Shown here one piece after another: positions 24,495 through 62,152 of a stretch of DNA of 64,000 nucleotides. A program made the translations under genes and the position numbers. The notes beneath the pieces were generated by a model. That model saw only the letters and a list, made by a program, of their open reading frames with translations. It was not told the origin of the DNA and ran no database searches. The stretch comes from an uncultured Verrucomicrobiota bacterium (GTDB lineage: Bacteria > Verrucomicrobiota > Verrucomicrobiia > Limisphaerales > UBA8199), in the NCBI GenBank assembly GCA_942493075.1, contig OW818681.1, positions 5,899,296 through 5,963,295 on the forward strand, written 5' to 3'. Position 1 is the stretch's first letter, and the number at the start of each line of letters is the position of its first letter.

Positions 24495-25334
24495 TTACCG
24501 ATTCCAGCCGTGGCTCTTGTATTTGGAACCGGTCGGCATCTTCTTGAATCGATCCAATGCGTTTTGCCGCCAATCCGCTCCGGCAGGTGCGGATGAGGCT
24601 GCCTCCGCACCGAGGACCTGATCCTGAACGGGCGTTGCTTCTGCGACGGGCGTTGGTGAGGTTTGGATGCTTGCGGCGGTTGCAGCCGGTTGAGTAATCG
24701 AGGCCGCGCGTGGCTGGAAGTATCCTCCTGACCCAAAGGTCGCAAGTGGTTGGGCGGATGAAGGCGAGGCCGTTTGAACGCCAATCACCGGCGGTGTGGC
24801 CGGTTGCGCTGTCTCCTCGTCCAGATAATTCCAACAAACCCGCACGGTGGATATGCTTCCTAAGTGCACCGCGATCCCGCGATATTCCAGCCCCGGGAAT
24901 TCCATTTTCTCCGAGAGCTCTTCGGCTTTAACCATGGCGGCGAGCAAGGCCTGGATTGTGGTGCGCGTTGCGTTCGCGGCCGCGAGGGCGCGGATGGTGG
25001 CACCCCCTACCTTCTCAAAGCGGTCCAACCGCAGAATGACTCTCCGTAAGGGCATGATCTCGATGTCCGCGCTGACCAATTCGTAACCGGCTGATTCGAG
25101 CACGCTGATGTTCTCGTTCACTTCGGTTACAACTTGCCCGAGACGTTCCTCGGTATCGACATTCAGACCGGTAAAGCAGGCCTGGACTTCATCGCGCAAT
25201 TCGTTCAACTGTCCAGCCGCAGCCAGGACGGATTGCCGTAGTTGCGCCGCCTGCTGCGGTGCCGCTTGCACGGCCTGGGAGAGCTGTGTCGCCCGCTGGC
25301 CGATGTTTCGCATCCGACGTGCTAGTTTGCTCAT
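24495..25334 (-). CDS. Hypothetical protein with an N-terminal coiled coil and a Ser/Thr/Pro/Ala-rich C-terminus. It is the last gene of the flotillin/giant-ATPase operon.
   Basis: 279-aa ORF on the same strand, 36 bp downstream of the 1845-aa gene. I recognise no family. Confidence 0.5.
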   Translation of the reverse strand: MSKLARRMRNIGQRATQLSQAVQAAPQQAAQLRQSVLAAAGQLNELRDEVQACFTGLNVDTEERLGQVVTEVNENISVLESAGYELVSADIEIMPLRRVILRLDRFEKVGGATIRALAAANATRTTIQALLAAMVKAEELSEKMEFPGLEYRGIAVHLGSISTVRVCWNYLDEETAQPATPPVIGVQTASPSSAQPLATFGSGGYFQPRAASITQPAATAASIQTSPTPVAEATPVQDQVLGAEAASSAPAGADWRQNALDRFKKMPTGSKYKSHGWNR

Positions 25335-25369
25335 AGATTTCCTGGGTTGCGGTTTGATTGTTTACGGCA

Positions 25370-28300
25370 TCAAGGCTGGATCTGAGGCGGCACACCGGGC
25401 GCAGGTGGTTCTTTAGGCGCTTCGGGCTGCTGCGATTGAGCCAGCACTTCCTGAAATTTTTCAAGAAACGCGCGCTCGTTCGTAAGCATTTCCTGCGTTA
25501 GGTCGATTTCCACCGTCCCTTGTTTTGCGCGGGTGGCCAGCAGTTCCTGGGCATCGCGCAAATGGTTTCGCTGCTGTACGGCCAGATCCTTCAAGGTCGC
25601 CAACGTGCTATGGATCATCTCCAACTCATGCGAAAGGCTGTTTACCTGGTCCCTGATATCGCCGGTGTGGCTCGCTGCCAAGGCGCGGCGCAACTCTTCG
25701 CCAAACGATTTTAACCCATCTCCGATATGCGCGGCGATGGAGGCTCCGGGATCTTCCTTCGGTGCCGCAGGCGCCCTGGTGGCAGCGAGGCTTTCCGCGA
25801 GTGTGGAGCGCATCGATTCCAGCTTGGTTTCCAGTGGGGTTAAATCCAGCGACAACGAAGACGGTTTGGAGAGCTGCTTCTCCAATGTCTCCTGGATGGA
25901 CTCCAGCCCTGCTTGAAATCCTGAGAGCTGGCCAACAACCCGGCTGACCGGGTCATTCTGATCAGCCCCGCGCACGAGCTGGTTGCGCTTGAACGTCTTC
26001 TTGATCTCTTCCCAACGCGCTAGCTCAGCAGCGGAGAGCTGGCCAATGAGTTCCTTGAACTTGAGCAGATTCGCCTCCGCGCCTGTTGTCAGCGTTTGGG
26101 ATTCATTCCGATAATGATCGATCAGAATCGTGCGGAGTTCCTCATCGTTCAGCACAGGCACGACTTTCTCGGCGAGCCTGTTCATATTCCGATAGGAGCC
26201 CTGCAACCGGAACGGGGGTTCGGTGCGGAACTCGTCCGCCTGGGCAGCGGAATGGATATACTCCTGATTCACGCGCAGCACCACGTTCCGAATGACCACC
26301 AGCTTCTTCATTACTGCGAGGATCTCTTCCACCTCCTGCGCCGAGTAGCTGCCTTCAAAACCTTCTGTCGGGCGGGAACCCGTCTCTGCCGTCCGGATAA
26401 ACGAGCGGATATCCTTCTGGCTCTTGTTGGAGAGCGGTGCCAGCACGGCATTCGACGTGACAGCATTTTCCAAGTAGCTGGCTTTGAACCAATCGGCGTT
26501 GCCGCCGATAATATCGCCGAGATTGTAGGTGTCAGCGCGGTTTGCGAGCATGTCCGGAATTCGGAATTTCTGGCCGCTCTCGGTGTAAGGATTGCCAGCC
26601 ATCACAACCACCAATTTGCGTCCCTTGAGATCGTAGGTGCGGGGCTGTCCCTTCCAAACGCCTTCTATCTTGCGCTGTCCATCACAAAGCGAGATGAATT
26701 TTTGCAGGAACTCGGGATTGCAATGCTGAATGTCATCCACGCAAATCATCACGTTATCACCCATCTCCAGCGCCAGGTTCAGCTTTTGGATTTCTTCGCG
26801 GGCGGCGGCGTTCGGCGCGGTCTCCGGATCGAGCGAAGTGACGCCGTGTCCGAGCGCGGGGCCGTTGATTTTTACGAAGATGATTCCCAGACGGTTGGAG
26901 ATGTACTCCATCAAGGTCGTCTTGCCGTAGCCCGGGGGAGAAATGACGAGAAGCAGTCCCATCAAGTCGGTGCGCTTCTGGTCACCGGCGGCGCCGATTT
27001 GCTTGGCGAGGTTATCGCCCAGCATAGGCAGATAGATCTCGTCGATGAGCTGGTTGCGCACAAAGGAAGTGAGCACGCGGGGTGTGAATTCCTCCAGGCG
27101 CAAGCGGGTGCGTTCACGTTCCAGGATGGCCTGTTTAGCACGTTGGAACGCCTCGTACCGGGGGACGACGTTCGTTTCAAAATGGGCTAAGCGCTCACGG
27201 AAATCGAGGTAATCGAACCGGTATTGTGTCCCGCTGACAACCGGGTGGGTACCTTTCATTCCGTCGATGGAACGGGACGTTCCCGCTTGCACGGGTGTGC
27301 GCTTCACCGCATCGCCGCAGAAGATGATGGCTGCAGCTTCTTCCAGGTAACGCTGTCCATCAGGCTGATTCAGCAGAAACCCGCGCACCCAGTCGCGGAC
27401 CAGTTCCAGCTCGCTTTCGGGATGCTCACGGAGTTCCTGGCGCGCTTTGGCAAAAGAATCTGTGCTGCCTTTTTGCAGGAGATGGCGGTTGAAGCCGGCA
27501 ACGATCTGATCCGCCTCGCGGCTGACGGCTATTGTCGTTGCGCCCGCTACGAGTTCATAGAACAGATACTCTCCAGCCGCCGCGACCAACTCCACAGGAT
27601 ACGCTTTCGCCGATTCGTTCCACTCACCAATGCGCTTGCGCAAGGCGGCGACGTAGTTGTCCTGGGTTGGGTCACCCGGGAACAGGCGGTTGCGCTCGCC
27701 AAAGCCCTTTAGCTTCGAATGCCACAAGGTCCGGGTTTGCTCCGGGGCAAACCGATGCCAAAACACCATGGCTAATGCGCGCGCGGCGGGATTGAACCTG
27801 GCGAGCTGAAGGGCCGTATGCGTGCTGAGCAGGACGGTAAAGATGCGCGCCGCATCCAGGTCGTGCACCCCTTTGGTGTAGCCCTCCTGATAGCGCGATG
27901 CCATGAAGGCCTGCACCAGGGCCAACTGCTCGGCTTCACTCTGGGCCAGCGCCTCGGTCAGCGCAGGCAGCTTAAGATCGCCATCAACAGCGTTCCGCCC
28001 CGCAGATCCGCCATGCAGCGCCTGCATCAATCGATAGGCGAGATACTCAGCCCGGTAAACGGTTTCGTTCTCTGAGATGACTTCCTGCGTCCACAAATCA
28101 CGGGACTGCTGAAAGAGCTCGTCGGTGATCGGCTCGAAATACCTGGTACTGGTCAGGTGGATGTGCTGCACACCGTCGCGGTTCACGATCGTGAGTTCGA
28201 GCGGTTGCGTATTGACGCTGAAACGGTGCTTGCCCAGGCGGATGACCGCCTGGCCATCCACGAAGAGCTCCTGGCGATCCTTTAACTGCCGGACCGCCTC

Positions 28301-30907
28301 CTGATGGACGCTCTTGAGGCGTCCTTCGAGATCATCCGCTTTGACGCTGTCTGATAGTTTGACCAGTTCCTGGATGGTTTCGCGGACCTTCCCGATCATC
28401 AGGTCCGACGCCATGTAGCTGTTGATTTCTTCCAGCGTGCGAAACGATGCGAGACGGTTCTTAACCACCTTGAGGATGCGTTCCGCTGCGGTCATCAACG
28501 CGCCAGCGCGCTTGTTCCTGTGTTCCACCAGGGCAACTTTGCGCTGCTCGAACACTTCATACAGCTCAGTGCGCCGCTCGGAGAGTTTGACGGTATACTC
28601 TTCGAACTCGGCGAAGGTGCCTTCCAGTTCCTCCAACTGCACCGAGATGCGGTTGAGATACTCGTCGCATTTGGCCGGGGAATCGCAGAGATCGAGGTAG
28701 CTGGCGGCGGACTGGCTCAGGAGCTTGATCTGCGCGTTAAACTGCTCGGCGCTCTCGGAGGCTACCAGGTTTTGCAGCCGCTTCTTGAGCGCGGCCCGCA
28801 CCTGGTTCAATGTCGCGAACACCCCGGTGATGCCGTCAATGATCCGGGTGGTCGCGGTCGCATCATCGATCTTTAAACCGTTGACGATCTCAATGAGCAT
28901 CTCGAGCTCACCGCTGCCCGCGGCAACGGCCTTCTCGATTTCTCGTGCCTCGGAAACTTTACCGACACTGTCCACTTTTGCGAGGTGCTCGTCCGCGTTC
29001 TTGCGATAAGGATCGAGGGCCTCGGGTTTGAGCAGGAATTGGACGCAGGCTTTCGCCAACTCTTCCGTCTGCTCCACCACGCTTTTCTCGATCAAATCAA
29101 CTTGCGGGATCTCAATGTAGCGAACTTCCTTGATGGTGGCGGTCTCACCGCGCAATTGCCGCAGAGCGGCAAGATTCACCACGAAATCGTTCAGCACACG
29201 GAAGCTTGCCCGGCGGATCTCCTGGAGACGCAGCTCTGTGCGTTTGCGCAAGTCTTGCAGCTTCTCCACCGCCTCGCGCTGCAACCGCCGCACTTTGTCG
29301 AACTCATCGACCGCTTTATCAGCGGCATCCCGGATCTGGCGCAGAGCGCCATCGATCTGGAAACCTTCCTCCGAACTCAGCCATGGATAAGCATCCAGGA
29401 TGGCTCCGCAACGTTTCGTTAGATCGGTGTAAAGCTCCGCGTAAGGGCTCTCCTTGCCGATCAAGGTGAGCACCTCGGTACATTCGGCCAGGCAGCGAAC
29501 AACATCCTTGTTCCCGACCTGATAGAGGAACGTGTCCTTCTTCCCGCCTGGTTCATGACCCGGCTGGTGGTACGGCGTTTGCCGCAACTGGATCATGTGA
29601 TGCTTCTGCGGCTCGTGCTCTGCCCGGAATAAGAGCAGGTGCCCCGTCGGGAAGATGGAGAACCCATGGCAACTGATGCGCTCCTCGACCTTCTGCGAAA
29701 TCAGCCGGTAGGGCATCAGCACATACTTGCCTTCCTGGCGCTGATAAAACACATAAAGCGAATCCTCCCCGTTTGGAGAATGAATGATACGCTCGATGAT
29801 GTAACCCTGTTCCTTGTTTTCGAACTGTTTCAGCTCACCAGTGGCCAGGTAATAGCCGTCAGGGAAAATCAGCCCATGCCCTTGAGGCAGGAAGACGCAG
29901 GATTCTCCCAGGGAATCGGCGCGGACCGCCTGCTGGGTCTTCTCGTTAAAGATGAAGAAGCGTGCCTGGGGTTCCTTATAGGGCCTGATCTTTAGCAGAA
30001 TGAGGTGGTCAACAATCGCGTAGCTGATCTCCGCGTCGTCCACTTTCTGAAACTTGTCCTCAACTGGCTCGGCGTAGATACCCTCACCGCTCGCCGTGTT
30101 GTCTTCCACCTTGATCGTTAGATCGCCGCCAATACATTCCACAAACACCCGGTCTTTGATGGATACGTGTGGATGATCGCCATAGCGGAACGATTCGCGA
30201 TCGGGGGTGCACCAGCGGAACTCGAACGGTGGAGGAAAACCCACCTGCCGGAATTCGCTTTCCGCGCGGCCATCGATGTACTGCAGCTTGCCTTCGTTGT
30301 ACGCCCATTTGAACACCGCGATATCGGTGAGCGAATTGCCAATGGAAAAGACCATGTACAATTTGCCATCGATCACCGAGAATTTGTGAAACCCCGCCTT
30401 CTGATAGACGTTATATAGCCGCTTGAAATCCGTGATGAACGCGGGGTCCTGGAGCAGTTCGAGCCCTGCCTCTTTAAAATTGGCAGCCTGGCCATCGCGC
30501 TGATAAATGGCGAACACGTCGCCCAGCTCCATTTCGCGCTTCAGTCCGAACTGGACGTTGAAACCGAACAGGAAAGCGCCATCGCCCAACTGCACCATGT
30601 CCTGGGGAATGCAGTTATGGGCAGTAACGATCCGGTCGGATTGCAGGAGCTTGAATTCGAGAGAGCCGAAGACCTCCTGGCGGCGAGCGTTAAGCTTTCC
30701 GCCGCGCTCGCGCAGCAGCGCACCTTGCGCCTGCAACCGCTGGCGGATGATCTCATAGGTGGCGCTGCCCAACGCTTGAGTTGGCGTTGCTGGCTGCGCC
30801 TGGGGCGGGGTCTTTGCCTCCGCGTTCGGCGGAGCCGGGGCTGGTACGTTCTCGGCCATGATCTGAATAGGGCCTGCCGGGCTTTTCAACCCGGCAGGCA
30901 CCTGCAA
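25370..30907 (-). CDS. Giant (1845 aa) multidomain protein. Architecture is an N-terminal beta-rich globular domain, a ~600-aa coiled-coil region, a P-loop AAA+ (AAA_5/MoxR-dynein-like) ATPase domain, and a C-terminal helical/Pro-rich tail.
   Basis: Walker A VISPPGYGKTTL and Walker B VMICVDDIQH. Long heptad-like helical stretches surround the ATPase. The start lies 4 bp after the flotillin stop. Confidence 0.7.
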   Translation of the reverse strand: MQVPAGLKSPAGPIQIMAENVPAPAPPNAEAKTPPQAQPATPTQALGSATYEIIRQRLQAQGALLRERGGKLNARRQEVFGSLEFKLLQSDRIVTAHNCIPQDMVQLGDGAFLFGFNVQFGLKREMELGDVFAIYQRDGQAANFKEAGLELLQDPAFITDFKRLYNVYQKAGFHKFSVIDGKLYMVFSIGNSLTDIAVFKWAYNEGKLQYIDGRAESEFRQVGFPPPFEFRWCTPDRESFRYGDHPHVSIKDRVFVECIGGDLTIKVEDNTASGEGIYAEPVEDKFQKVDDAEISYAIVDHLILLKIRPYKEPQARFFIFNEKTQQAVRADSLGESCVFLPQGHGLIFPDGYYLATGELKQFENKEQGYIIERIIHSPNGEDSLYVFYQRQEGKYVLMPYRLISQKVEERISCHGFSIFPTGHLLLFRAEHEPQKHHMIQLRQTPYHQPGHEPGGKKDTFLYQVGNKDVVRCLAECTEVLTLIGKESPYAELYTDLTKRCGAILDAYPWLSSEEGFQIDGALRQIRDAADKAVDEFDKVRRLQREAVEKLQDLRKRTELRLQEIRRASFRVLNDFVVNLAALRQLRGETATIKEVRYIEIPQVDLIEKSVVEQTEELAKACVQFLLKPEALDPYRKNADEHLAKVDSVGKVSEAREIEKAVAAGSGELEMLIEIVNGLKIDDATATTRIIDGITGVFATLNQVRAALKKRLQNLVASESAEQFNAQIKLLSQSAASYLDLCDSPAKCDEYLNRISVQLEELEGTFAEFEEYTVKLSERRTELYEVFEQRKVALVEHRNKRAGALMTAAERILKVVKNRLASFRTLEEINSYMASDLMIGKVRETIQELVKLSDSVKADDLEGRLKSVHQEAVRQLKDRQELFVDGQAVIRLGKHRFSVNTQPLELTIVNRDGVQHIHLTSTRYFEPITDELFQQSRDLWTQEVISENETVYRAEYLAYRLMQALHGGSAGRNAVDGDLKLPALTEALAQSEAEQLALVQAFMASRYQEGYTKGVHDLDAARIFTVLLSTHTALQLARFNPAARALAMVFWHRFAPEQTRTLWHSKLKGFGERNRLFPGDPTQDNYVAALRKRIGEWNESAKAYPVELVAAAGEYLFYELVAGATTIAVSREADQIVAGFNRHLLQKGSTDSFAKARQELREHPESELELVRDWVRGFLLNQPDGQRYLEEAAAIIFCGDAVKRTPVQAGTSRSIDGMKGTHPVVSGTQYRFDYLDFRERLAHFETNVVPRYEAFQRAKQAILERERTRLRLEEFTPRVLTSFVRNQLIDEIYLPMLGDNLAKQIGAAGDQKRTDLMGLLLVISPPGYGKTTLMEYISNRLGIIFVKINGPALGHGVTSLDPETAPNAAAREEIQKLNLALEMGDNVMICVDDIQHCNPEFLQKFISLCDGQRKIEGVWKGQPRTYDLKGRKLVVVMAGNPYTESGQKFRIPDMLANRADTYNLGDIIGGNADWFKASYLENAVTSNAVLAPLSNKSQKDIRSFIRTAETGSRPTEGFEGSYSAQEVEEILAVMKKLVVIRNVVLRVNQEYIHSAAQADEFRTEPPFRLQGSYRNMNRLAEKVVPVLNDEELRTILIDHYRNESQTLTTGAEANLLKFKELIGQLSAAELARWEEIKKTFKRNQLVRGADQNDPVSRVVGQLSGFQAGLESIQETLEKQLSKPSSLSLDLTPLETKLESMRSTLAESLAATRAPAAPKEDPGASIAAHIGDGLKSFGEELRRALAASHTGDIRDQVNSLSHELEMIHSTLATLKDLAVQQRNHLRDAQELLATRAKQGTVEIDLTQEMLTNERAFLEKFQEVLAQSQQPEAPKEPPAPGVPPQIQP

Positions 30908-30911
30908 ATAC

Positions 30912-33089
30912 TCACGCCTTCACGATCGGCTTACGTTCCGAGATCAGCGCATCCGCTGCCATTTCGGAGAGACCACGCTCGCGAGCAGTGGTCAGCGCTG
31001 ATTTCAACAGTGACTGAATCGAGACGTCGCTGGTGGAAGCCATCAGCTTGCCCAGCAGCGCGGCAATGGTCAGGTTCTTGACATCCTCGGAGTTGATGCC
31101 GAAGTCCTTGATCCATTGTTTGAGCTGCGTGCGGAACCGGTCCGGATCGCCATTAAAGAACGTTTCTTTGATGTCCGTCAGCGTGCTGCTGTTGCTGACC
31201 ATGCGATCCACAGAGCGTCCCGCGGTGACAGCTTTAACCACCTTCTCGAAGAAGTCGTTCTCGCCGCCCACAATCTCAATGTTGGCGCTCTTGAGAGCTT
31301 CGGCGACAATGTTCGACTGAGACTCGGCGATGTACCGCTGCACGTTGATGGAAGCGAGTTCCACGTCCCGTTCCTTGGCGAGGCGCAACCGGAATTCCTC
31401 GTGTGCCTGCCCCGCTTCATGCAGAAGCTTCATGGCTTTGGCCTTCTCTTCGATGCTCTTGGCTTCGGCCAGACCCTTGGCCTGGATACCTGCCGCAGAA
31501 GCGAGTTCCTTGTCCTTCACGCCCTCGGCTTCGGCCTGGGCTTGCTGCTCGGTCACAGATGCGGTAACCCCGCCTTTGGCTTTGATCACCTCGGCCTCAG
31601 CAAACCCGACTTCTTTCAATGCTTCCGCATCCGCCTTCTTGGCGCCCGCCTTCGCGCAAATCACCTTGGCCTCGGCAAGGCCTTTTGCGGCTTCCTGGGC
31701 AGCGACGCCTTCGGCTTGCTGCTCCATGGCGTGCCGTCTGTGTTCCGCGGCCTTCGCCTCGGCGCTGGCCATGGTCTGAATACGCTCGGCGTCGCGTAAC
31801 GCACCTTCCTTGGCCGCATCCGCCGCGGTGATTGTCTGAATCCTGGCGGCGTCGGCGAGGGTCCGTTCGGCTTCCCTCTGAGCTTCGGCCGCGACCACTT
31901 TCTGGACCTGCTCCTTCTTGGCGTTCATGTCCGCCTCGATCAAAGTCACTTCGCGCACCCGCTCAGCCGTCATGCGGGCCTCAATGTTGAGCTTCTCTTC
32001 TTCCTGCTGGATGACGGCCTTTTCTTCAGCCACGACCACCGCGCGTTTGCGCTGCACCTCAACGCCAACCTCAGCAACCTTCGCGTCGCGGTCCATTTCC
32101 GCCAGGGATACCGAGCGCTCGCGGCGCACGCGTGCTTCCTCGCCCTCCTGCACCGATTCCTGCTCCAACCGCTGCTTCTCCTTCTTAACGGTAAACTCGC
32201 GCTCTTGCACCGCGCGGTTCATGTCTTCGGTGCGCAATCGGATGGATTCCTCGGCTTCCAGCCTCTTGTTCTCTACTTCCTGACGGCGCGCCTCAATGAC
32301 CTTCCGGGCCTCAGCTTCCTCATTCGCCTTCACCTCGGTGACGGCGCGGGTTTGTTTGGCGGTATCGGACTCGTTGCGCCGTTTCTGCTCGCGCTTGGCG
32401 ATGTCAGCATCCGCGTTCTCTTTCTCGATCTGCACGCCGGCCCGCTGTGAATGTTCGTTGGCGATGACCCGTTCGCGCTGGGTGATCTGCGTAATCTTCT
32501 TGATGCCCTCTGCATCAAGGACGTTATTTGGGTCATGCTGATCGAGCGGTGTCTGCTCAAGATAATCGATCGCGACGTCTTGCAGAAGGAACCCATCCAG
32601 ATCCTTCCCGATTGTAGCCTGGATCTGGTCGCGGAACTTTGTGCGTTCCGTGAACAGCTCGTGAAATTCCATCTGTTTGCCCGCGGTCTTGAGTGCCTCT
32701 GAGAACTTGGCTTCGAAGAGGTCGCGCAGTTGGTCGATGTCCGATACCCGCTCGGGCGTCAGCATTTGGGCTACTTTACGAACGCTCTCCTCCGAGGCAT
32801 CGACCCGGATATAGAACGCCACAGCGATATCGGCGCGGATATTGTCTTTGCATACCAGGCCGTCCTTGCCTTTGCGCTGGATCTCCAGCTTTTTGACGGA
32901 GATATCGACGATATGATAGGTCTGGATCAGGGGGACGCGCACCATCCAATCGAAGGAGACTTTCACGCCGCCCCAACCGGTCTTCACCCCGGCTCGCCCC
33001 GGTTGAATTTTGCGGACGCAGAACAGAGATGCGGCAGCTCCGACGAGGAGCACGATGACAACAAAGGCGCCAATGATATAAGGCAACAT
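30912..33089 (-). CDS. Flotillin-family (SPFH/band-7, YqiK/FloT-like) membrane protein with a long Glu/Ala-rich coiled-coil region.
   Basis: N-terminal TM, then SPFH domain (GVKTGWGGVKVSFDWMVRVPLIQTYHIVDISVKKLEI). Then EA-repeat coiled coil and the flotillin C-terminal domain. Confidence 0.85.
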   Translation of the reverse strand: MLPYIIGAFVVIVLLVGAAASLFCVRKIQPGRAGVKTGWGGVKVSFDWMVRVPLIQTYHIVDISVKKLEIQRKGKDGLVCKDNIRADIAVAFYIRVDASEESVRKVAQMLTPERVSDIDQLRDLFEAKFSEALKTAGKQMEFHELFTERTKFRDQIQATIGKDLDGFLLQDVAIDYLEQTPLDQHDPNNVLDAEGIKKITQITQRERVIANEHSQRAGVQIEKENADADIAKREQKRRNESDTAKQTRAVTEVKANEEAEARKVIEARRQEVENKRLEAEESIRLRTEDMNRAVQEREFTVKKEKQRLEQESVQEGEEARVRRERSVSLAEMDRDAKVAEVGVEVQRKRAVVVAEEKAVIQQEEEKLNIEARMTAERVREVTLIEADMNAKKEQVQKVVAAEAQREAERTLADAARIQTITAADAAKEGALRDAERIQTMASAEAKAAEHRRHAMEQQAEGVAAQEAAKGLAEAKVICAKAGAKKADAEALKEVGFAEAEVIKAKGGVTASVTEQQAQAEAEGVKDKELASAAGIQAKGLAEAKSIEEKAKAMKLLHEAGQAHEEFRLRLAKERDVELASINVQRYIAESQSNIVAEALKSANIEIVGGENDFFEKVVKAVTAGRSVDRMVSNSSTLTDIKETFFNGDPDRFRTQLKQWIKDFGINSEDVKNLTIAALLGKLMASTSDVSIQSLLKSALTTARERGLSEMAADALISERKPIVKA

Positions 33090-33325: not shown

Positions 33326-33580
33326 GTGACAGAACAGGAAATTAATCGGCACCGCGCATTGCGGCAAAAACGCGCTGCGGAGATTCTCGCTACCGTGGAC
33401 CAGTTCAAGGTCTGCGATCAGTGCCGCTCGATTTCATACAAGCGGGCTCAGACTTGCACGGTTTGCGGCGCCTACCGATTCAATGACAAACCCGCCCTAG
33501 TTAGCAAGACGGCGCGGGAAATGGGCTCGAATCCATTCCCAACTACATCGGGGACAGTCCCACGTCTTGATCCGGTGTGA
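33326..33580 (+). CDS. Possible small zinc-ribbon protein (CxxC-X15-CxxC), divergent from the flotillin operon.
   Basis: 84-aa ORF with VCDQC...CTVCG. It lies in the 510-bp promoter region, so it could be spurious. Confidence 0.3.
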   Translation: MTEQEINRHRALRQKRAAEILATVDQFKVCDQCRSISYKRAQTCTVCGAYRFNDKPALVSKTAREMGSNPFPTTSGTVPRLDPV

Positions 33581-33601: not shown

Positions 33602-33826
33602 TTAGAACTTGATTGCGTCGTTAATCTGGCCGCATTGGGAGCATCGGGATCGGTCCACATCCGGATCATCGGTATAGACGTAATCGCATTTCAGGCATCT
33701 AAAGATGCTATCTCTATTTGAAGGGGGCTCAAAACGGCGGCGCCGGAATTCCGTGTATACGCCCAAAGCGGCCAGGCTGGCTAACGCCACCACCAGGTAA
33801 GTAAAGATTAGCGCGGGAACGGACAT
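33602..33826 (-). CDS. Small membrane-anchored zinc-ribbon protein (one TM plus CxxC-X14-CxxC). The ORF is open to 33904, but the start is more likely at MSVPALIF.
   Basis: Hydrophobic helix ALIFTYLVVALASLAALGVY, then CLKC...CSQC, immediately downstream of the tonB-like gene. Confidence 0.4.
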   Translation of the reverse strand: MSVPALIFTYLVVALASLAALGVYTEFRRRRFEPPSNRDSIFRCLKCDYVYTDDPDVDRSRCSQCGQINDAIKF

Positions 33827-33828
33827 AG

Positions 33829-34632
33829 CTAAGGCAATCCTGCGGGCGATGCATTGGTGGAGGTTATTGGCAAGGCAGCCCATTCGAAGACGATCGTACC
33901 CCAATCCAATTCTCCGGGCTGCGGCGCTTCTGACGGCTCAGCTCCGGGGTTCTTGGAGGCGAAACGCAGGCTGCGGGCCAGGTCGAGGGCATACGTATCC
34001 GCCGCCACCGAACCGCTCTTGGCAGATAGCACGCTTGAAATTGCCAGGCCTTCCGGGCTCACCGCCAGGCGGACTACCGTGTTGGAAAGCAAATCTGTGG
34101 CGGCAAAGCCAGGCAAAGCCGGACGGGCCAGCAACTGTCTTTGAGCGAGGGTGCCGGTCAGGTGGAGTTGCGAAGCCTGCGGCCCACCCGGCAAAGGTTC
34201 GGCCATAGGTAGTGTCAGTTCGGGCGTGGCCAGCGGCAGGCGATGCCGGAATACCGGGCGGTGCTGTTGCATCAGCAGATCGAAGGAGTTGTCCAGTTGG
34301 GAACGAGTCAACTCGAGTAACGCAGGCAGGTTCGTCCATTGGAACGATCGGTTGAGGATGCTATGCAGGTCCCTGTTTTGCCTTGCGAGGGCAAGGCCGG
34401 AGAAAGATTCAGGCTGCGGGAGGGCGAAAAGCGTCGGATTTTGGATTGCGATCAGTTCGGCCTGGCTGCGTGGCGCGGGTTGGAACGTGGGTGCGAAAGC
34501 AGGCTTCCGGCGGGTTGTTGGCGTGCTATCGCTTAGCCAGAAGATCAAGCCGGCCTGTGACGCAAAGATCAGGAGGATGGCCGCCAGCCAGCGCTGGCGG
34601 GACCAGACAGAGTCTATCGTGCCGGCCGTCAT
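33829..34632 (-). CDS. TonB-like energy-transducer protein (N-terminal TM anchor, Pro-rich linker, C-terminal domain).
   Basis: Architecture fits TonB, and its start overlaps the exbD stop by 4 nt. The TonB C-terminal motif is weak. Confidence 0.5.
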   Translation of the reverse strand: MTAGTIDSVWSRQRWLAAILLIFASQAGLIFWLSDSTPTTRRKPAFAPTFQPAPRSQAELIAIQNPTLFALPQPESFSGLALARQNRDLHSILNRSFQWTNLPALLELTRSQLDNSFDLLMQQHRPVFRHRLPLATPELTLPMAEPLPGGPQASQLHLTGTLAQRQLLARPALPGFAATDLLSNTVVRLAVSPEGLAISSVLSAKSGSVAADTYALDLARSLRFASKNPGAEPSEAPQPGELDWGTIVFEWAALPITSTNASPAGLP

Positions 34633-51853: not shown

Positions 51854-53503
<1,650 letters not shown>

Positions 53504-53528
53504 CTATACGGGGTTTGAGTTATTTCAC

Positions 53529-58011: not shown

Positions 58012-60056
58012 GCTTGTCGAGGTAGGGACGCGGGTTACCCGCGCCCCCCTCACAGATCCCGGCGGGCAGTTTTCCTGCACCGGGCTCTTCAGATCAACTC
58101 GCTCTCGCATTCGCCATTGGTTGTTTCCATGTCCGGGAGAAGTGTGCCAGACGCTGGCAGTAACTCAGTTCCAACTGGCAAGGCATGCAGCCGTTCTTTT
58201 CCACAATGCGCGGGGGCGGCACTTGGAAACGCTCCAGCAGCCGATTGACCGCTGGCCATCTCAGGCTCTTTCGCTGACTCCGCCGGTTGAGCCATTTGTA
58301 CAGTGCCCGGCAGGTCTCATCATAGAGGAGTTTCATACGGCGAGAGTTGCCGATGATTCCATAGTAATTCCACGTCCCTTGCAGCTTTGCCTTCAATGTT
58401 TTCATCAATAGGCGCAGCTTCTGGTGACGCTGTTCTTTGATCCAGTCTTTCATCCTCTGCATGGCCGCCTGATGCTTCTTGGTGGCCGTGCGTCGTTTAA
58501 CCCTTGGTTTGCCTTTCCGGTCCGCTTCCCAGTAAAACTCGAACCCTAAAAAGTCAAACCTCCCATTGTGTGGCCCGCCATTGCGGCCAAAACGTATCGT
58601 CTTGGTTTTGTCGGGTGCCACCTCCAGCCCAAACTGAGCCAGTCGTTCTTTCAGTGCCTTTTCGAAGGCTTCGGCTTCATGCCGATACTCAAAGCTCGCC
58701 ACAAAGTCATCCGCATAGCGGACCATTCGACAGCGCCCTTGTTGCTTGGGTTTGACCACGCGTTCAAACCATAGATCCAGCACATAGTGCAGGTAGATAT
58801 TTGCCAGCACAGGCGAAACTACTCCGCCTTGGGGTGTTCCAGTCTGAGGATGTATCACCTTCCCATCCTCTTCCAGTATCCCTGCCCGCAGCCATTTGCG
58901 GATCAGGTTTACAAACGCTCCATCAGCGATTCTTTCCTCCAACATCCGCTCCAACCAGTCCCATTGGATATTGTCGAAAAATCCTTTGATGTCTGCTTCC
59001 ACTACGAAGTTGTGTCCGCCAAACTGCAACTCGTCCGTCAGGGCTTTGATCGCCGCGTGGGCGCTGATCCCTGGCCGATACCCATAGCTGCACGGCAGAA
59101 AGTTCTCTTCATAGATTGCCAGCAGGATTTGCGTCGCCGCCACTTGCAGCAGCTTATCCTCCAGCACCGGTATTCCTAAGGGACGGAATTTTCCGTTCCC
59201 CTTCGGAATGTACTTCCTCCGCACCAGTCGCGCCCGGTAGGCTTTGCGCCGGAGTCGATCCACCAGATCCGCCAGGTTCGCCTCCAGGTTTCTCTCATAT
59301 TCCTGGTACGTGACCTTGTCCACGCCACTGGCTGCGTCCTTCCGCAAGCGGTAGAAACACAGGCGCAAGACGTCCTGATTGATCATCCGATACAGCCCTC
59401 CGAACCGGTAGTGCTTTTGTGTGCATGCCTTCTCAGCTATAGCCCGCAGGGAGGTTTGCCAGTCTTTCTCCGTGGTTCTTACGGGACCGGTTTCCTGTGC
59501 AGGCTGCGTTGCTCTGTGGGACCCTTCCTGAACTTCGGGGCTTGCGCCTTGCCGTCCAATACTATGATCCCATCCGACTCCCGGATCGTCCGAAGGCGCT
59601 CCTTGTCGTTGCGTCCTCGTTCCTGCTTGGCCCTCGCAGTTAGTGCGGCAGGGACCCTCCGGGCCTCCTTCGTTCCGTGCGTCTCCTTCAGTGCCCGCCA
59701 CGCTCTTAGACCCCGGCAAGCCCGCCGCGACCTCACCTGTAGCGGTCACTTCGGTTTTGGGTTCGGGTAACGTAACTCCATCCCCACTTGCATTTTCGTT
59801 TTTCGAGGCTGAATTGCTTAAGCGGGATGCGGGTCCCGCTTGCGGCTTGCACTTTACCGCAGGTACGCTTCCCAACGGGCGTTCCGGCCGGTAAAACCAT
59901 AAGTCCACCGGTTCTCTTCCCGCCAGGCAACCTTCGGCTTTTGGATGTTGGTTAGACTCTTCCATTCTTTGTTTTCACTCAGAACTCCGATTGTCTGACA
60001 ACCGGATCAGAGGGACTTTCACCCTCGGATTACGCACAGCTTCACGAAGCGCTACT
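58012..60056 (-). mobile_element. Group II intron (IIC-like, ~2.04 kb), copy 1. Boundaries are approximate (±20 nt).
   Basis: Domain V on the minus strand at 58054-58087 reads GAGCCCGGUGCAGG-AAAA-CUGCCCGCCGGGAUCU. A domain VI-like stem follows. The intron encodes an RT/maturase and has an identical tandem copy. Confidence 0.75.
58094..59965 (-). CDS. Group II intron reverse transcriptase/maturase (no endonuclease domain). The ORF maximum is shown. The true start is probably near 59386-59500, because the N-terminal 190 aa are low-complexity read-through of intron RNA domains.
   Basis: RT motifs PKGNGKFRPLGIPVLEDKLLQ, FVVEADIKGFFDNI, VRYADDFV (the YADD motif), then maturase domain X. Confidence 0.85.
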   Translation of the reverse strand: MEESNQHPKAEGCLAGREPVDLWFYRPERPLGSVPAVKCKPQAGPASRLSNSASKNENASGDGVTLPEPKTEVTATGEVAAGLPGSKSVAGTEGDARNEGGPEGPCRTNCEGQAGTRTQRQGAPSDDPGVGWDHSIGRQGASPEVQEGSHRATQPAQETGPVRTTEKDWQTSLRAIAEKACTQKHYRFGGLYRMINQDVLRLCFYRLRKDAASGVDKVTYQEYERNLEANLADLVDRLRRKAYRARLVRRKYIPKGNGKFRPLGIPVLEDKLLQVAATQILLAIYEENFLPCSYGYRPGISAHAAIKALTDELQFGGHNFVVEADIKGFFDNIQWDWLERMLEERIADGAFVNLIRKWLRAGILEEDGKVIHPQTGTPQGGVVSPVLANIYLHYVLDLWFERVVKPKQQGRCRMVRYADDFVASFEYRHEAEAFEKALKERLAQFGLEVAPDKTKTIRFGRNGGPHNGRFDFLGFEFYWEADRKGKPRVKRRTATKKHQAAMQRMKDWIKEQRHQKLRLLMKTLKAKLQGTWNYYGIIGNSRRMKLLYDETCRALYKWLNRRSQRKSLRWPAVNRLLERFQVPPPRIVEKNGCMPCQLELSYCQRLAHFSRTWKQPMANARAS

Positions 60057-60109: not shown

Positions 60110-62152
60110 GTTGTCGAGGTAGGGACGCGGGTTACCCGCGCCCCCCTCACAGATCCCGGCGGGCAGTTTTCCTGCACCGGGCTCTTCAGATCAACTCGCT
60201 CTCGCATTCGCCATTGGTTGTTTCCATGTCCGGGAGAAGTGTGCCAGACGCTGGCAGTAACTCAGTTCCAACTGGCAAGGCATGCAGCCGTTCTTTTCCA
60301 CAATGCGCGGGGGCGGCACTTGGAAACGCTCCAGCAGCCGATTGACCGCTGGCCATCTCAGGCTCTTTCGCTGACTCCGCCGGTTGAGCCATTTGTACAG
60401 TGCCCGGCAGGTCTCATCATAGAGGAGTTTCATACGGCGAGAGTTGCCGATGATTCCATAGTAATTCCACGTCCCTTGCAGCTTTGCCTTCAATGTTTTC
60501 ATCAATAGGCGCAGCTTCTGGTGACGCTGTTCTTTGATCCAGTCTTTCATCCTCTGCATGGCCGCCTGATGCTTCTTGGTGGCCGTGCGTCGTTTAACCC
60601 TTGGTTTGCCTTTCCGGTCCGCTTCCCAGTAAAACTCGAACCCTAAAAAGTCAAACCTCCCATTGTGTGGCCCGCCATTGCGGCCAAAACGTATCGTCTT
60701 GGTTTTGTCGGGTGCCACCTCCAGCCCAAACTGAGCCAGTCGTTCTTTCAGTGCCTTTTCGAAGGCTTCGGCTTCATGCCGATACTCAAAGCTCGCCACA
60801 AAGTCATCCGCATAGCGGACCATTCGACAGCGCCCTTGTTGCTTGGGTTTGACCACGCGTTCAAACCATAGATCCAGCACATAGTGCAGGTAGATATTTG
60901 CCAGCACAGGCGAAACTACTCCGCCTTGGGGTGTTCCAGTCTGAGGATGTATCACCTTCCCATCCTCTTCCAGTATCCCTGCCCGCAGCCATTTGCGGAT
61001 CAGGTTTACAAACGCTCCATCAGCGATTCTTTCCTCCAACATCCGCTCCAACCAGTCCCATTGGATATTGTCGAAAAATCCTTTGATGTCTGCTTCCACT
61101 ACGAAGTTGTGTCCGCCAAACTGCAACTCGTCCGTCAGGGCTTTGATCGCCGCGTGGGCGCTGATCCCTGGCCGATACCCATAGCTGCACGGCAGAAAGT
61201 TCTCTTCATAGATTGCCAGCAGGATTTGCGTCGCCGCCACTTGCAGCAGCTTATCCTCCAGCACCGGTATTCCTAAGGGACGGAATTTTCCGTTCCCCTT
61301 CGGAATGTACTTCCTCCGCACCAGTCGCGCCCGGTAGGCTTTGCGCCGGAGTCGATCCACCAGATCCGCCAGGTTCGCCTCCAGGTTTCTCTCATATTCC
61401 TGGTACGTGACCTTGTCCACGCCACTGGCTGCGTCCTTCCGCAAGCGGTAGAAACACAGGCGCAAGACGTCCTGATTGATCATCCGATACAGCCCTCCGA
61501 ACCGGTAGTGCTTTTGTGTGCATGCCTTCTCAGCTATAGCCCGCAGGGAGGTTTGCCAGTCTTTCTCCGTGGTTCTTACGGGACCGGTTTCCTGTGCAGG
61601 CTGCGTTGCTCTGTGGGACCCTTCCTGAACTTCGGGGCTTGCGCCTTGCCGTCCAATACTATGATCCCATCCGACTCCCGGATCGTCCGAAGGCGCTCCT
61701 TGTCGTTGCGTCCTCGTTCCTGCTTGGCCCTCGCAGTTAGTGCGGCAGGGACCCTCCGGGCCTCCTTCGTTCCGTGCGTCTCCTTCAGTGCCCGCCACGC
61801 TCTTAGACCCCGGCAAGCCCGCCGCGACCTCACCTGTAGCGGTCACTTCGGTTTTGGGTTCGGGTAACGTAACTCCATCCCCACTTGCATTTTCGTTTTT
61901 CGAGGCTGAATTGCTTAAGCGGGATGCGGGTCCCGCTTGCGGCTTGCACTTTACCGCAGGTACGCTTCCCAACGGGCGTTCCGGCCGGTAAAACCATAAG
62001 TCCACCGGTTCTCTTCCCGCCAGGCAACCTTCGGCTTTTGGATGTTGGTTAGACTCTTCCATTCTTTGTTTTCACTCAGAACTCCGATTGTCTGACAACC
62101 GGATCAGAGGGACTTTCACCCTCGGATTACGCACAGCTTCACGAAGCGCTAC
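60110..62152 (-). mobile_element. Group II intron, copy 2. Identical to copy 1 and separated from it by a ~53-bp spacer.
   Basis: The ~2.04-kb sequence is identical, including the DV/DVI region and the ORF. Confidence 0.75.
60191..62062 (-). CDS. Group II intron reverse transcriptase/maturase, copy 2 (100% identical protein).
   Basis: The ORF translation is identical to 58094..59965. Confidence 0.85.
   Translation of the reverse strand: MEESNQHPKAEGCLAGREPVDLWFYRPERPLGSVPAVKCKPQAGPASRLSNSASKNENASGDGVTLPEPKTEVTATGEVAAGLPGSKSVAGTEGDARNEGGPEGPCRTNCEGQAGTRTQRQGAPSDDPGVGWDHSIGRQGASPEVQEGSHRATQPAQETGPVRTTEKDWQTSLRAIAEKACTQKHYRFGGLYRMINQDVLRLCFYRLRKDAASGVDKVTYQEYERNLEANLADLVDRLRRKAYRARLVRRKYIPKGNGKFRPLGIPVLEDKLLQVAATQILLAIYEENFLPCSYGYRPGISAHAAIKALTDELQFGGHNFVVEADIKGFFDNIQWDWLERMLEERIADGAFVNLIRKWLRAGILEEDGKVIHPQTGTPQGGVVSPVLANIYLHYVLDLWFERVVKPKQQGRCRMVRYADDFVASFEYRHEAEAFEKALKERLAQFGLEVAPDKTKTIRFGRNGGPHNGRFDFLGFEFYWEADRKGKPRVKRRTATKKHQAAMQRMKDWIKEQRHQKLRLLMKTLKAKLQGTWNYYGIIGNSRRMKLLYDETCRALYKWLNRRSQRKSLRWPAVNRLLERFQVPPPRIVEKNGCMPCQLELSYCQRLAHFSRTWKQPMANARAS

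Follow-up and report, generated by a model that had tools for sequence, protein, structure and literature searches.

Within a 64,000-nt stretch of contig OW818681.1, referred to here at its full length as the window, three genes lie in tandem on the minus strand and encode a flotillin-family SPFH protein, a giant AAA+ ATPase and a small protein, g279. The locus is the Verrucomicrobial variant of a computationally described flotillin-ATPase pairing, from which it differs by being without YqiJ/NfeD and PspA genes and by carrying g279 in addition. The list of open reading frames (ORFs) confirms the three genes of a preliminary description, made from this DNA alone, at the following positions (aa, amino acids):

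30912-33089, minus strand: flotillin-family SPFH protein, 725-aa ORF
25370-30907, minus strand: giant ATPase as the mechanical ORF, 1845 aa from a TTG start
25370-30859, minus strand: giant DUF3686/DUF7902 AAA+ ATPase, 1829 aa from ATG 30859, start taken from the ortholog alignment
24495-25334, minus strand: g279, 279-aa ORF, lineage-specific third gene

Aligned orthologs of the ATPase all begin at a MAE/MAD methionine that matches ATG 30859, which is almost certainly the true start and gives a protein of 1829 aa, not the 1845 aa first reported. Because the ATPase starts at this ATG, the spacer that separates it from the flotillin gene (stop codon 30912-30914) is 52 nt long, not 4. The tight linkage of flotillin, AAA+ and small-protein genes in one operon is upheld, while the 4-bp first spacer of the preliminary description is not; its second spacer, between the ATPase and g279, had been put at 36 bp and is 35 nt. 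The operon genes look native, since their G+C content (0.581, window 0.573) and their G+C content at third codon positions (0.65-0.73, neighbors 0.71-0.74) match the surroundings.

The three-gene arrangement was surveyed in 80 loci on contigs from one genome per species (GTDB), with loci counted as evaluable where enough flank was available. Flotillin lies directly upstream of the ATPase, on the same strand, in all 56 evaluable loci, and g279 lies directly downstream of it in 44 of 53; in two further loci g279 is inverted yet present (hidden Markov model E 1e-46 and 1e-49), which brings the total to 46/53 and leaves seven of the 53 from which it is missing. No other neighbor recurs, the maximum being 3 of 49 evaluable loci upstream and 3 of 44 downstream. 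The conserved unit therefore comprises exactly three genes, to which the exbBD/tonB-like neighbors found in the window are incidental, and an arrangement that recurs in dozens of independent genomes is far beyond chance. The ATPase and flotillin evolve slowly and keep 53-80% identity among several Verrucomicrobial orders; on one contig of 3.5 Mb, pheT and pheS flank the module. No YqiJ/NfeD-like gene is found in any of 55 Verrucomicrobial loci, nor in the 64-kb window when searched by tblastn with seven YqiJ/NfeD-like partners, which agrees with the earlier remark that the usual NfeD-like partner of flotillin is missing here. PspA, CesT/Tir, PLD and TelA likewise have no match in the 64-kb window, and the Verrucomicrobial loci contain no conserved upstream genes such as CesT/Tir-PspA. 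As a side observation, several metagenome-assembled genome records (L001, L016, L022, L043, L059, L061 and others) carry the locus at 65-72% identity to Verrucomicrobial proteins under titles that name Bifidobacterium, Klebsiella, Akkermansia, Hyphomicrobiales, Methylomirabilota or a cyanobacterium; these titles look unreliable, or the bins contaminated.

The pairing extends well past this phylum. Twelve non-Verrucomicrobial loci were recovered by tblastn against plasmid-collection records (Saprospira from the GTDB loci), and they encode full-length relatives of the ATPase, at 37-48% identity, in Hymenobacter, Saprospira, Streptomyces, Nonomuraea, Deinococcus, Proteus, Halomonas, Pseudomonas (pQBR103), Vibrio and Photobacterium. 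Flotillin is directly upstream in 12/12 of these loci, which represent Bacteroidota, Pseudomonadota, Actinomycetota and Deinococcota. The check proposed in the preliminary description, whether orthologs always co-occur with flotillin, thus comes out positive in 56/56 evaluable GTDB loci and 12/12 loci of other phyla, and the two genes are coupled, adjacent and co-oriented, wherever they can be examined in five phyla. Upstream of flotillin, 11 of the 12 non-Verrucomicrobial loci encode mutually homologous YqiJ/NfeD-like membrane proteins, so that the absence of this partner characterizes only the Verrucomicrobial variant and not the family; a g279 homolog occurs in none of the non-Verrucomicrobial loci examined. 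In Hymenobacter, whose ATPase is 48% identical to that of the window, the gene order is CesT/Tir-PspA-DUF1449-flotillin-ATPase, and on pQBR103 it is YjfI-PspA-...-YqiJ-like-SPFH-ATPase, within a yjfI-yjfJ(PspA)-...-yjfC cluster. In Vibrio and Photobacterium, genes for a PLD-family hydrolase (PLDc_2) and TelA follow the ATPase. A resembling arrangement is seen in two divergent marine Verrucomicrobia (L054 15539-19091 and L078 15531-19134), in which an inverted g279 is followed by a PLDc_2 hydrolase and then by a 620-637-aa protein that has no Pfam match.

Operons of this kind were described in a comparative study, in which CesT/Tir-PspA genes are accompanied by a three-transmembrane protein prototyped by YqiJ and YuaF, a Band-7/flotillin protein and a novel AAA+ ATPase with a beta-propeller and a coiled coil (Ravi et al. 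2024, mSystems, PMC11237479). The same study reports more widespread abbreviated operons without PspA, with YqiJ/YuaF listed in the abbreviated form, notes a PLD gene in some Proteobacterial operons, and names Dokdonia donghaensis ANH61663.1 as the prototype in its supplementary table (PMC11237479). We equate the window ATPase family with this AAA+ family because Hymenobacter, whose ATPase shares 48% identity with ours, repeats the order of genes in that study; the basis is the likeness in architecture and gene order and not a sequence alignment to the protein of Dokdonia. The window shares with the published phage-shock-protein-associated operon the architecture of flotillin and ATPase and their order, flotillin then ATPase. 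It differs in that YqiJ/YuaF, present even in the abbreviated form, is absent from the window and from 55/55 Verrucomicrobial loci, and in that the CesT/Tir-PspA dyad of the full form is absent, in which respect the window corresponds to the abbreviated form; the Verrucomicrobial loci also carry g279, which Ravi et al. do not mention. The earlier statement that the operon belongs to no described system is thereby superseded, as the ATPase is a full-length member of DUF3686 plus DUF7902 and its pairing with flotillin is already in Ravi et al. 2024. Literature searches on DUF3686/PF12458, or on 'DNA repair ATPase' with flotillin, returned nothing.

Along the giant ATPase the following elements can be placed:

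29570-30667, minus strand: beta-propeller, about aa 65-430, with roughly seven blades of four strands each, within the DUF3686 region (AlphaFold2 and Foldseek)
28250-29362, minus strand: helical coiled-coil-like stalk, about aa 500-870 (composition and LmuB coil match; extent inferred)
28772-29023, minus strand: DUF7902, aa 613-696, inside the stalk (Pfam PF25472)
26000-27082, minus strand: single AAA+ module, about aa 1260-1620 (alignment of 13 orthologs, weak Pfam AAA matches)
26915-26941, minus strand: Walker A, S1307-T1315, invariant in the alignment
26723-26749, minus strand: Walker B, hhhhDDIQH, aa 1371-1379, invariant, with Asp-Asp in place of Asp-Glu
25373-25912, minus strand: C-terminal helical Pro-rich tail, about aa 1650-1829 (alignment columns 1750-2032)

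The protein matches DUF3686 (PF12458) with 550.1 bits against a cut-off of 25, over model positions 2-447 of 448, and DUF7902 (PF25472) with 96.3 bits against a cut-off of 26, over positions 1-84 of 85. Among the candidates scored, 3,592 homologs reach E<=1e-10; the closest are all from Verrucomicrobiota and are named 'DNA repair ATPase' or 'AAA family ATPase' by NCBI, and repeating the search with a profile built from several phyla gained little, most matches being Verrucomicrobial once more. The AlphaFold2 model of aa 1-525 (mean per-residue confidence, pLDDT, 84.8; predicted template modeling score, pTM, 0.83) opens with a long helix (26-64), continues into about seven beta-blades of four strands each (70-427) and ends in a helical bundle (444-524); helices 26-64 and 444-524 flank the propeller and pack as a bundle. 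Foldseek returned 237 PDB matches to the propeller model at E<=1e-3, and 50/50 among the matches listed contain a beta-propeller; their TM-scores are low, a common outcome when propellers are superposed out of register. The beta-rich N-terminal domain of the preliminary description is thus borne out and can be specified as a beta-propeller. The coiled coil, there estimated at about 600 aa, is shorter: the stalk, called from composition and the LmuB match and not from a dedicated coiled-coil predictor, spans about 370 aa that are low in Pro/Gly and high in Ala/Glu/Leu/Arg, and positions 525-912 match the SMC-like coil of PADLOC LmuB (E 2e-5). A short beta segment and a helical region follow the stalk and lead into the one AAA+ module. 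ATPases of four other phyla are collinear with that of the window over aa ~30-1660 at 37-48% identity; the last ~180 residues, which form the C-terminal tail, are kept within Verrucomicrobia and are missing or partial in other phyla. A hydrophobicity scan of the giant ATPase gave zero hydrophobic windows and hence no transmembrane (TM) segment.

The Walker motifs first read as SPPGYGKTT and ICVDDIQH are both present in the translation. Across the 13 orthologs from five phyla, Walker A SPPGYGKT, Walker B DDIQH, the sensor-1 residue N1423 and two arginines, R1441 (in PDMLANRAD) and R1557 (in QGSYRNMN), are invariant. Placement of the module in an AAA+ clade was attempted with whole-protein, AAA-module and Walker B-to-arginine-finger profiles against the PDB, which returned P-loop matches or nothing. 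The P-loop region, ~35-50 residues, resembles NVL, p97, Cdc48, NSF, Rix7 and RuvB at E ~1e-4; with the whole ATPase as query no solved structure matched past this region, with the Walker B-to-arginine segment no AAA+ structure matched, and NCBIfam and PADLOC gave no meaningful family match. The label 'MoxR/dynein-like' given earlier is not established by these searches. The Pfam models AAA, AAA_22 and AAA_5 all match below threshold, and AAA_5, the one with the widest cover of the module (residues 1320-1443 in TTG-ORF numbering), falls short of its 22-bit cut-off with 21.1 bits, while the PDB likeness is to the P-loop of classical AAA proteins and RuvB. One source does name a relative 'MoxR-like ATPase', and an N-P-x-x-E-x-G...P-D-x-L-x-N-R segment after sensor 1 appears to resemble the MoxR/AAA_5 signature. 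No gene for a VWA-domain partner adjoins the window ATPase.

Two elements can be placed on the flotillin protein:

33018-33089, minus strand: membrane anchor, aa 1-24 (Kyte-Doolittle scan and sequence)
32586-33011, minus strand: SPFH/Band_7 domain, aa 27-168 (Pfam PF01145, 52.6 bits against a cut-off of 23.6)

An N-terminal TM helix is followed by Band_7, then by a coiled coil of about 360 aa that is rich in Ala and Glu (20% and 17%, respectively, over residues 200-560), and lastly by a conserved C-terminal region. The 19-aa hydrophobic windows are confined to aa 1-29, and R26 and K27 directly follow the anchor, from which, by the positive-inside rule, the SPFH domain and the bulk of the protein are predicted to be cytoplasmic. 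The whole 725-aa protein gave zero Pfam matches as query, probably because of the Ala/Glu-rich coil, and Band_7/SPFH is matched with E 7e-14 when aa 1-235 are scanned alone. With its N-terminal hydrophobic segment, this match sustains the original flotillin call. Pfam Flot (PF15975) is unmatched at E<=1 in both the whole protein and its C-terminal 155 aa, and a flotillin profile against the PDB found nothing beyond one marginal QmcA match. The protein is 30-47% identical to the flotillin/SPFH genes upstream of the ATPase in other phyla, with which it forms one orthologous set; RefSeq names two of these orthologs, both from Streptomyces, 'flotillin family protein', and 'SPFH domain-containing protein' also occurs as an annotation in the set.

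The third gene encodes what is, by sequence comparison, a compact and unannotated accessory family specific to the Verrucomicrobial lineage. An exhaustive HMMER scan found 417 cluster representatives at E<=1e-3, all 250-320 aa long with the domain at the N-terminus, and no family in Pfam, NCBIfam or PADLOC and no PDB or fold relative was found for g279. In its model a long helix (aa 3-54) precedes an alpha/beta domain (62-175, pLDDT ~90), which a disordered linker connects to a short helix at the C-terminus; no membrane segment was found. In alignments the linker is rich in Pro/Ala/Ser/Thr and bears a conserved F..G..FFxPR motif, and the terminal helix is conserved:

24534-24575, minus strand: g279 C-terminal helix DWRxxALDRFKKMP, aa 254-267

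The C-terminal peptide of the window protein is DWRQNALDRFKKMP. g279 evolves fast (21-42% identity, against 53-72% for the ATPase in related loci), and the C-terminal motif is kept despite this divergence. Other assignments of g279 were considered and set aside. Pfam PspA_IM30 scores 15.8 bits against a cut-off of 33.9, and hhalign gives a probability of 0.6% against a linked PspA; the model, with one long helix and an alpha/beta domain, is not the helical hairpin of an ESCRT-III protein; and comparison with CesT/Tir found the two unrelated.

Between the flotillin and ATPase genes lies a further element:

30872-30899, minus strand: G+C-rich hairpin, 12 bp, inside the 52-nt flotillin-ATPase spacer

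The outer stem of this hairpin joins the flotillin stop region to the ATPase start region, and its minimum free energy is -36 kcal/mol over 65 nt (z = -6.2 against 200 shuffles). Stable G+C-rich hairpins, unrelated in sequence, occur at the same spacer of L003, L015, L019, L020, L027, L031, L038, L054, L069, L070 and L073, the shuffle control applying to the window only. Since the position of the hairpin is kept across orthologous loci, the conservation suggests that it sets the scaffold-to-ATPase expression ratio. In L009, L039, L046, L056 and L061 the flotillin-ATPase spacers contain REP-like repeats and/or RAYT transposase insertions, the RAYT-type (IS200/IS605-like) transposase ORF beginning MAHTYTSLLSHIIFSTKDR, and such insertions, which recur at one and the same intergenic position, may target the spacer hairpin. 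An extra conserved gene was sought in the flotillin-ATPase gaps of 1-1.8 kb and rejected, these being mostly REP/RAYT, with unrelated and unconserved ORFs in L059 and L012.

We propose, with a probability of roughly one half, that flotillin and its dedicated giant AAA+ ATPase constitute a widespread two-component module for scaffold or client remodeling in membrane maintenance. The membrane-anchored, ATP-driven cytoplasmic assembly pictured in the preliminary description appears right in outline, with the predicted membrane segment in flotillin only and neither the ATPase nor g279 having one. Flotillin would form a cytoplasm-facing cage or microdomain, like solved SPFH proteins; the ATPase would oligomerize via its AAA+ ring, and its propeller and stalk would dock it either on the assembled flotillin or on clients bound to that assembly. 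ATP would drive the assembly, disassembly or remodeling of the scaffold or of its cargo, or the extraction of clients. Because the module is co-encoded with PspA in Bacteroidota and Pseudomonas, we propose a role in membrane maintenance and envelope-stress handling, in the functional neighborhood of PspA/IM30. In Verrucomicrobia, g279 may act in place of YqiJ/NfeD as a soluble accessory, either adaptor or regulator; it probably binds the ATPase, most likely at the propeller, through the short linear motifs of its C-terminal part, and the spacer hairpin probably lowers expression of the ATPase relative to the scaffold. A more specific version, which we put forward tentatively and regard as distinctly less probable, would make the DUF3686 ATPase the dedicated assembly/disassembly machine of flotillin cages, as Vps4 is for ESCRT-III or NSF for SNAREs, with six propeller-tipped coiled-coil arms gripping the cage and g279 as the motif-bearing adaptor that replaces YqiJ/NfeD.

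Several points weigh against the two-component remodeling module. Pfam and PDB sequence searches assign the giant ATPase to no AAA+ clade, and since the Walker B motif is Asp-Asp and not Asp-Glu, it could hydrolyze ATP slowly or serve as a nucleotide switch instead of a motor. As the window has no PspA, CesT/Tir or YqiJ, the link to envelope stress is drawn by analogy with other phyla, and the PLD-family gene that follows the ATPase in Vibrio, Photobacterium and the two marine Verrucomicrobia, in some cases together with TelA, could point to an effector-type system. Our searches found no experimental study of any member, and one comparative study only.

The alternative nearest to this proposal, although we consider it somewhat improbable, is a Cdc48/FtsH-like extraction or quality-control machine for which the flotillin cage would be a platform only, with damaged or mislocalized membrane proteins or PspA/ESCRT-III-type polymers as clients. 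In its favor, solved SPFH cages enclose AAA+ partners or regulate them, p97/Cdc48, NVL and NSF are the closest matches of the P-loop region, genes for PspA and CesT/Tir chaperones accompany the module in two phyla, and propellers and g279-type adaptors are typical for substrate recruitment. The ATPase, however, has no protease domain and offers no substrate clue, and PspA is absent from the window and from the conserved Verrucomicrobial unit; on present data the two readings are nearly indistinguishable. The defense part of the defense/stress module suggested in the preliminary description would be an anti-phage or abortive-infection system in which the flotillin-anchored ATPase would sense infection or membrane damage and trigger an effector such as the PLD-family hydrolase (PLDc_2) encoded next to it, with or without TelA, in some genomes. 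Several copies of the module are on plasmids or megaplasmids, flanking genes vary between genomes, and a giant ATPase with a small accessory recalls the layout of many defense systems. We nevertheless judge this clearly unlikely, as neither PADLOC, run as had been proposed, nor viral contigs support it: the best PADLOC-DB v2 match for any of the three proteins is the LmuB coil (E 2e-5), a likeness at the coil/P-loop level only, and a search of 2.9 million viral contigs found no relative. Furthermore, the slow-evolving ATPase and flotillin, at 53-80% identity across Verrucomicrobial orders, make inheritance look vertical and not patchy; the contexts are housekeeping ones (pheS/pheT, and in the window an ABC ATPase, DUF2200 and a nucleoside symporter); and the window operon encodes no nuclease, protease or PLD effector.

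A role in DNA repair, which the database names imply (the Pfam DUF3686 text reads 'ATPase involved in DNA repair', and the NCBI name is 'DNA repair ATPase'), seems hardly credible. Weak P-loop-level matches to RuvB and the coil match to SMC-like LmuB might be taken in its favor, yet the RuvB NCBIfam models reach 20.6 and 17.2 bits where their cut-offs demand 282 and 299, and the likeness is limited to ~35-50 residues around Walker A. Pfam, NCBIfam and PADLOC scans detected no DNA-binding, nuclease or recombinase domain; the neighbor is a membrane flotillin in every locus examined, often with YqiJ/NfeD and PspA, and no repair gene is among the annotated neighbors. We found no paper that backs the name, which is misleading and should not be propagated.

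Known systems offer partial parallels to the proposed remodeling module. FtsH-HflK/C and the m-AAA protease-prohibitin complex are cases in which an SPFH cage and an AAA+ machine cooperate at a membrane. In contrast to FtsH, a membrane-embedded AAA protease enclosed on the periplasmic/intermembrane side, the window ATPase is predicted to be soluble and on the cytoplasmic side, has five times the length of its AAA+ module and no protease domain, and shows no detectable FtsH-type homology past the P-loop fold. The P-loop region is most like the clade of Vps4 and NSF, which act on ESCRT-III and SNAREs, and the partner here would likewise be a coiled-coil-rich, membrane-bound polymer; the folded head, disordered linker and C-terminal helix motif of g279 recall adaptors or substrates that dock through short motifs. 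Unlike these proteins, the window ATPase has no MIT or NSF-N domain, no detectable homology outside ~35 residues, and DD, not DE, in Walker B. Flotillin-NfeD operons, exemplified by yuaF-floT/yuaG of B. subtilis and yqiJ-yqiK of E. coli and assigned to SPFH2 (Hinderhofer et al. 2009, PMC2636767), resemble the window in encoding an SPFH protein that is anchored by a TM segment and has an extended coiled coil, and the NfeD-type partner is also found upstream in the module's other phyla. These operons are without an AAA+ gene, whereas the window is without NfeD/YqiJ and without a Pfam Flot match.

The function of bacterial flotillins, and how their cages are built and dismantled, is still an unsettled question, and to our knowledge current models all treat these proteins as passive, ATP-independent scaffolds. 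A giant AAA+ protein beside one flotillin subfamily in every locus examined is an obvious and unexplored handle on it, and one available in the tractable Proteus mirabilis, Vibrio campbellii, Pseudomonas fluorescens SBW25 (pQBR103) and Streptomyces. According to a 2025 review, a Vps4-like ATPase that would act in PspA/ESCRT-III dynamics 'appears absent in bacteria'; an AAA+ protein co-encoded with PspA and flotillin is a candidate for this missing role. If the more specific version, with the ATPase as assembly/disassembly machine of flotillin cages, is true, bacterial membrane microdomains would gain an energy-dependent turnover cycle that is not known to have been described. The conserved C-terminal peptide of g279 is an easy target for interaction mapping.

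The remaining features of the window lie outside the conserved unit:

33326-33580, plus strand: small cysteine-pair (zinc-ribbon-like) ORF, between the flotillin gene and the exbBD unit
33602-33826, minus strand: small ORF with a TM helix and CxxC...CxxC, between the flotillin gene and the exbBD unit
33829-34632, minus strand: 267-aa 'TonB-like' ORF
58094-59965 and 60191-62062, minus strand: two tandem 623-aa ORFs, each with RVT_1 and GIIM domains (Pfam)

The operon had been described as lying directly downstream of an exbB-exbD-tonB-like unit and a zinc-ribbon gene. Clear Pfam family matches support exbB and exbD beside the operon; the 'TonB-like' ORF has no Pfam match at E<=1, and neither of the two small ORFs has a family match above threshold. 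Direct linkage does not hold up: the opposite-strand ORF at 33326-33580 intervenes between exbBD and flotillin, and membership of the exbB-exbD-tonB and zinc-ribbon genes in the unit was rejected, as none recurs in the 49 upstream and 44 downstream evaluable loci. Elsewhere in the window, two 545-aa ORFs (51854-53491, minus strand, and 51881-53518, plus strand) overlap almost fully, so that only one can be a real gene. The two tandem 623-aa ORFs have identical Pfam scores and so appear to belong to a pair of adjacent, nearly identical group II introns.

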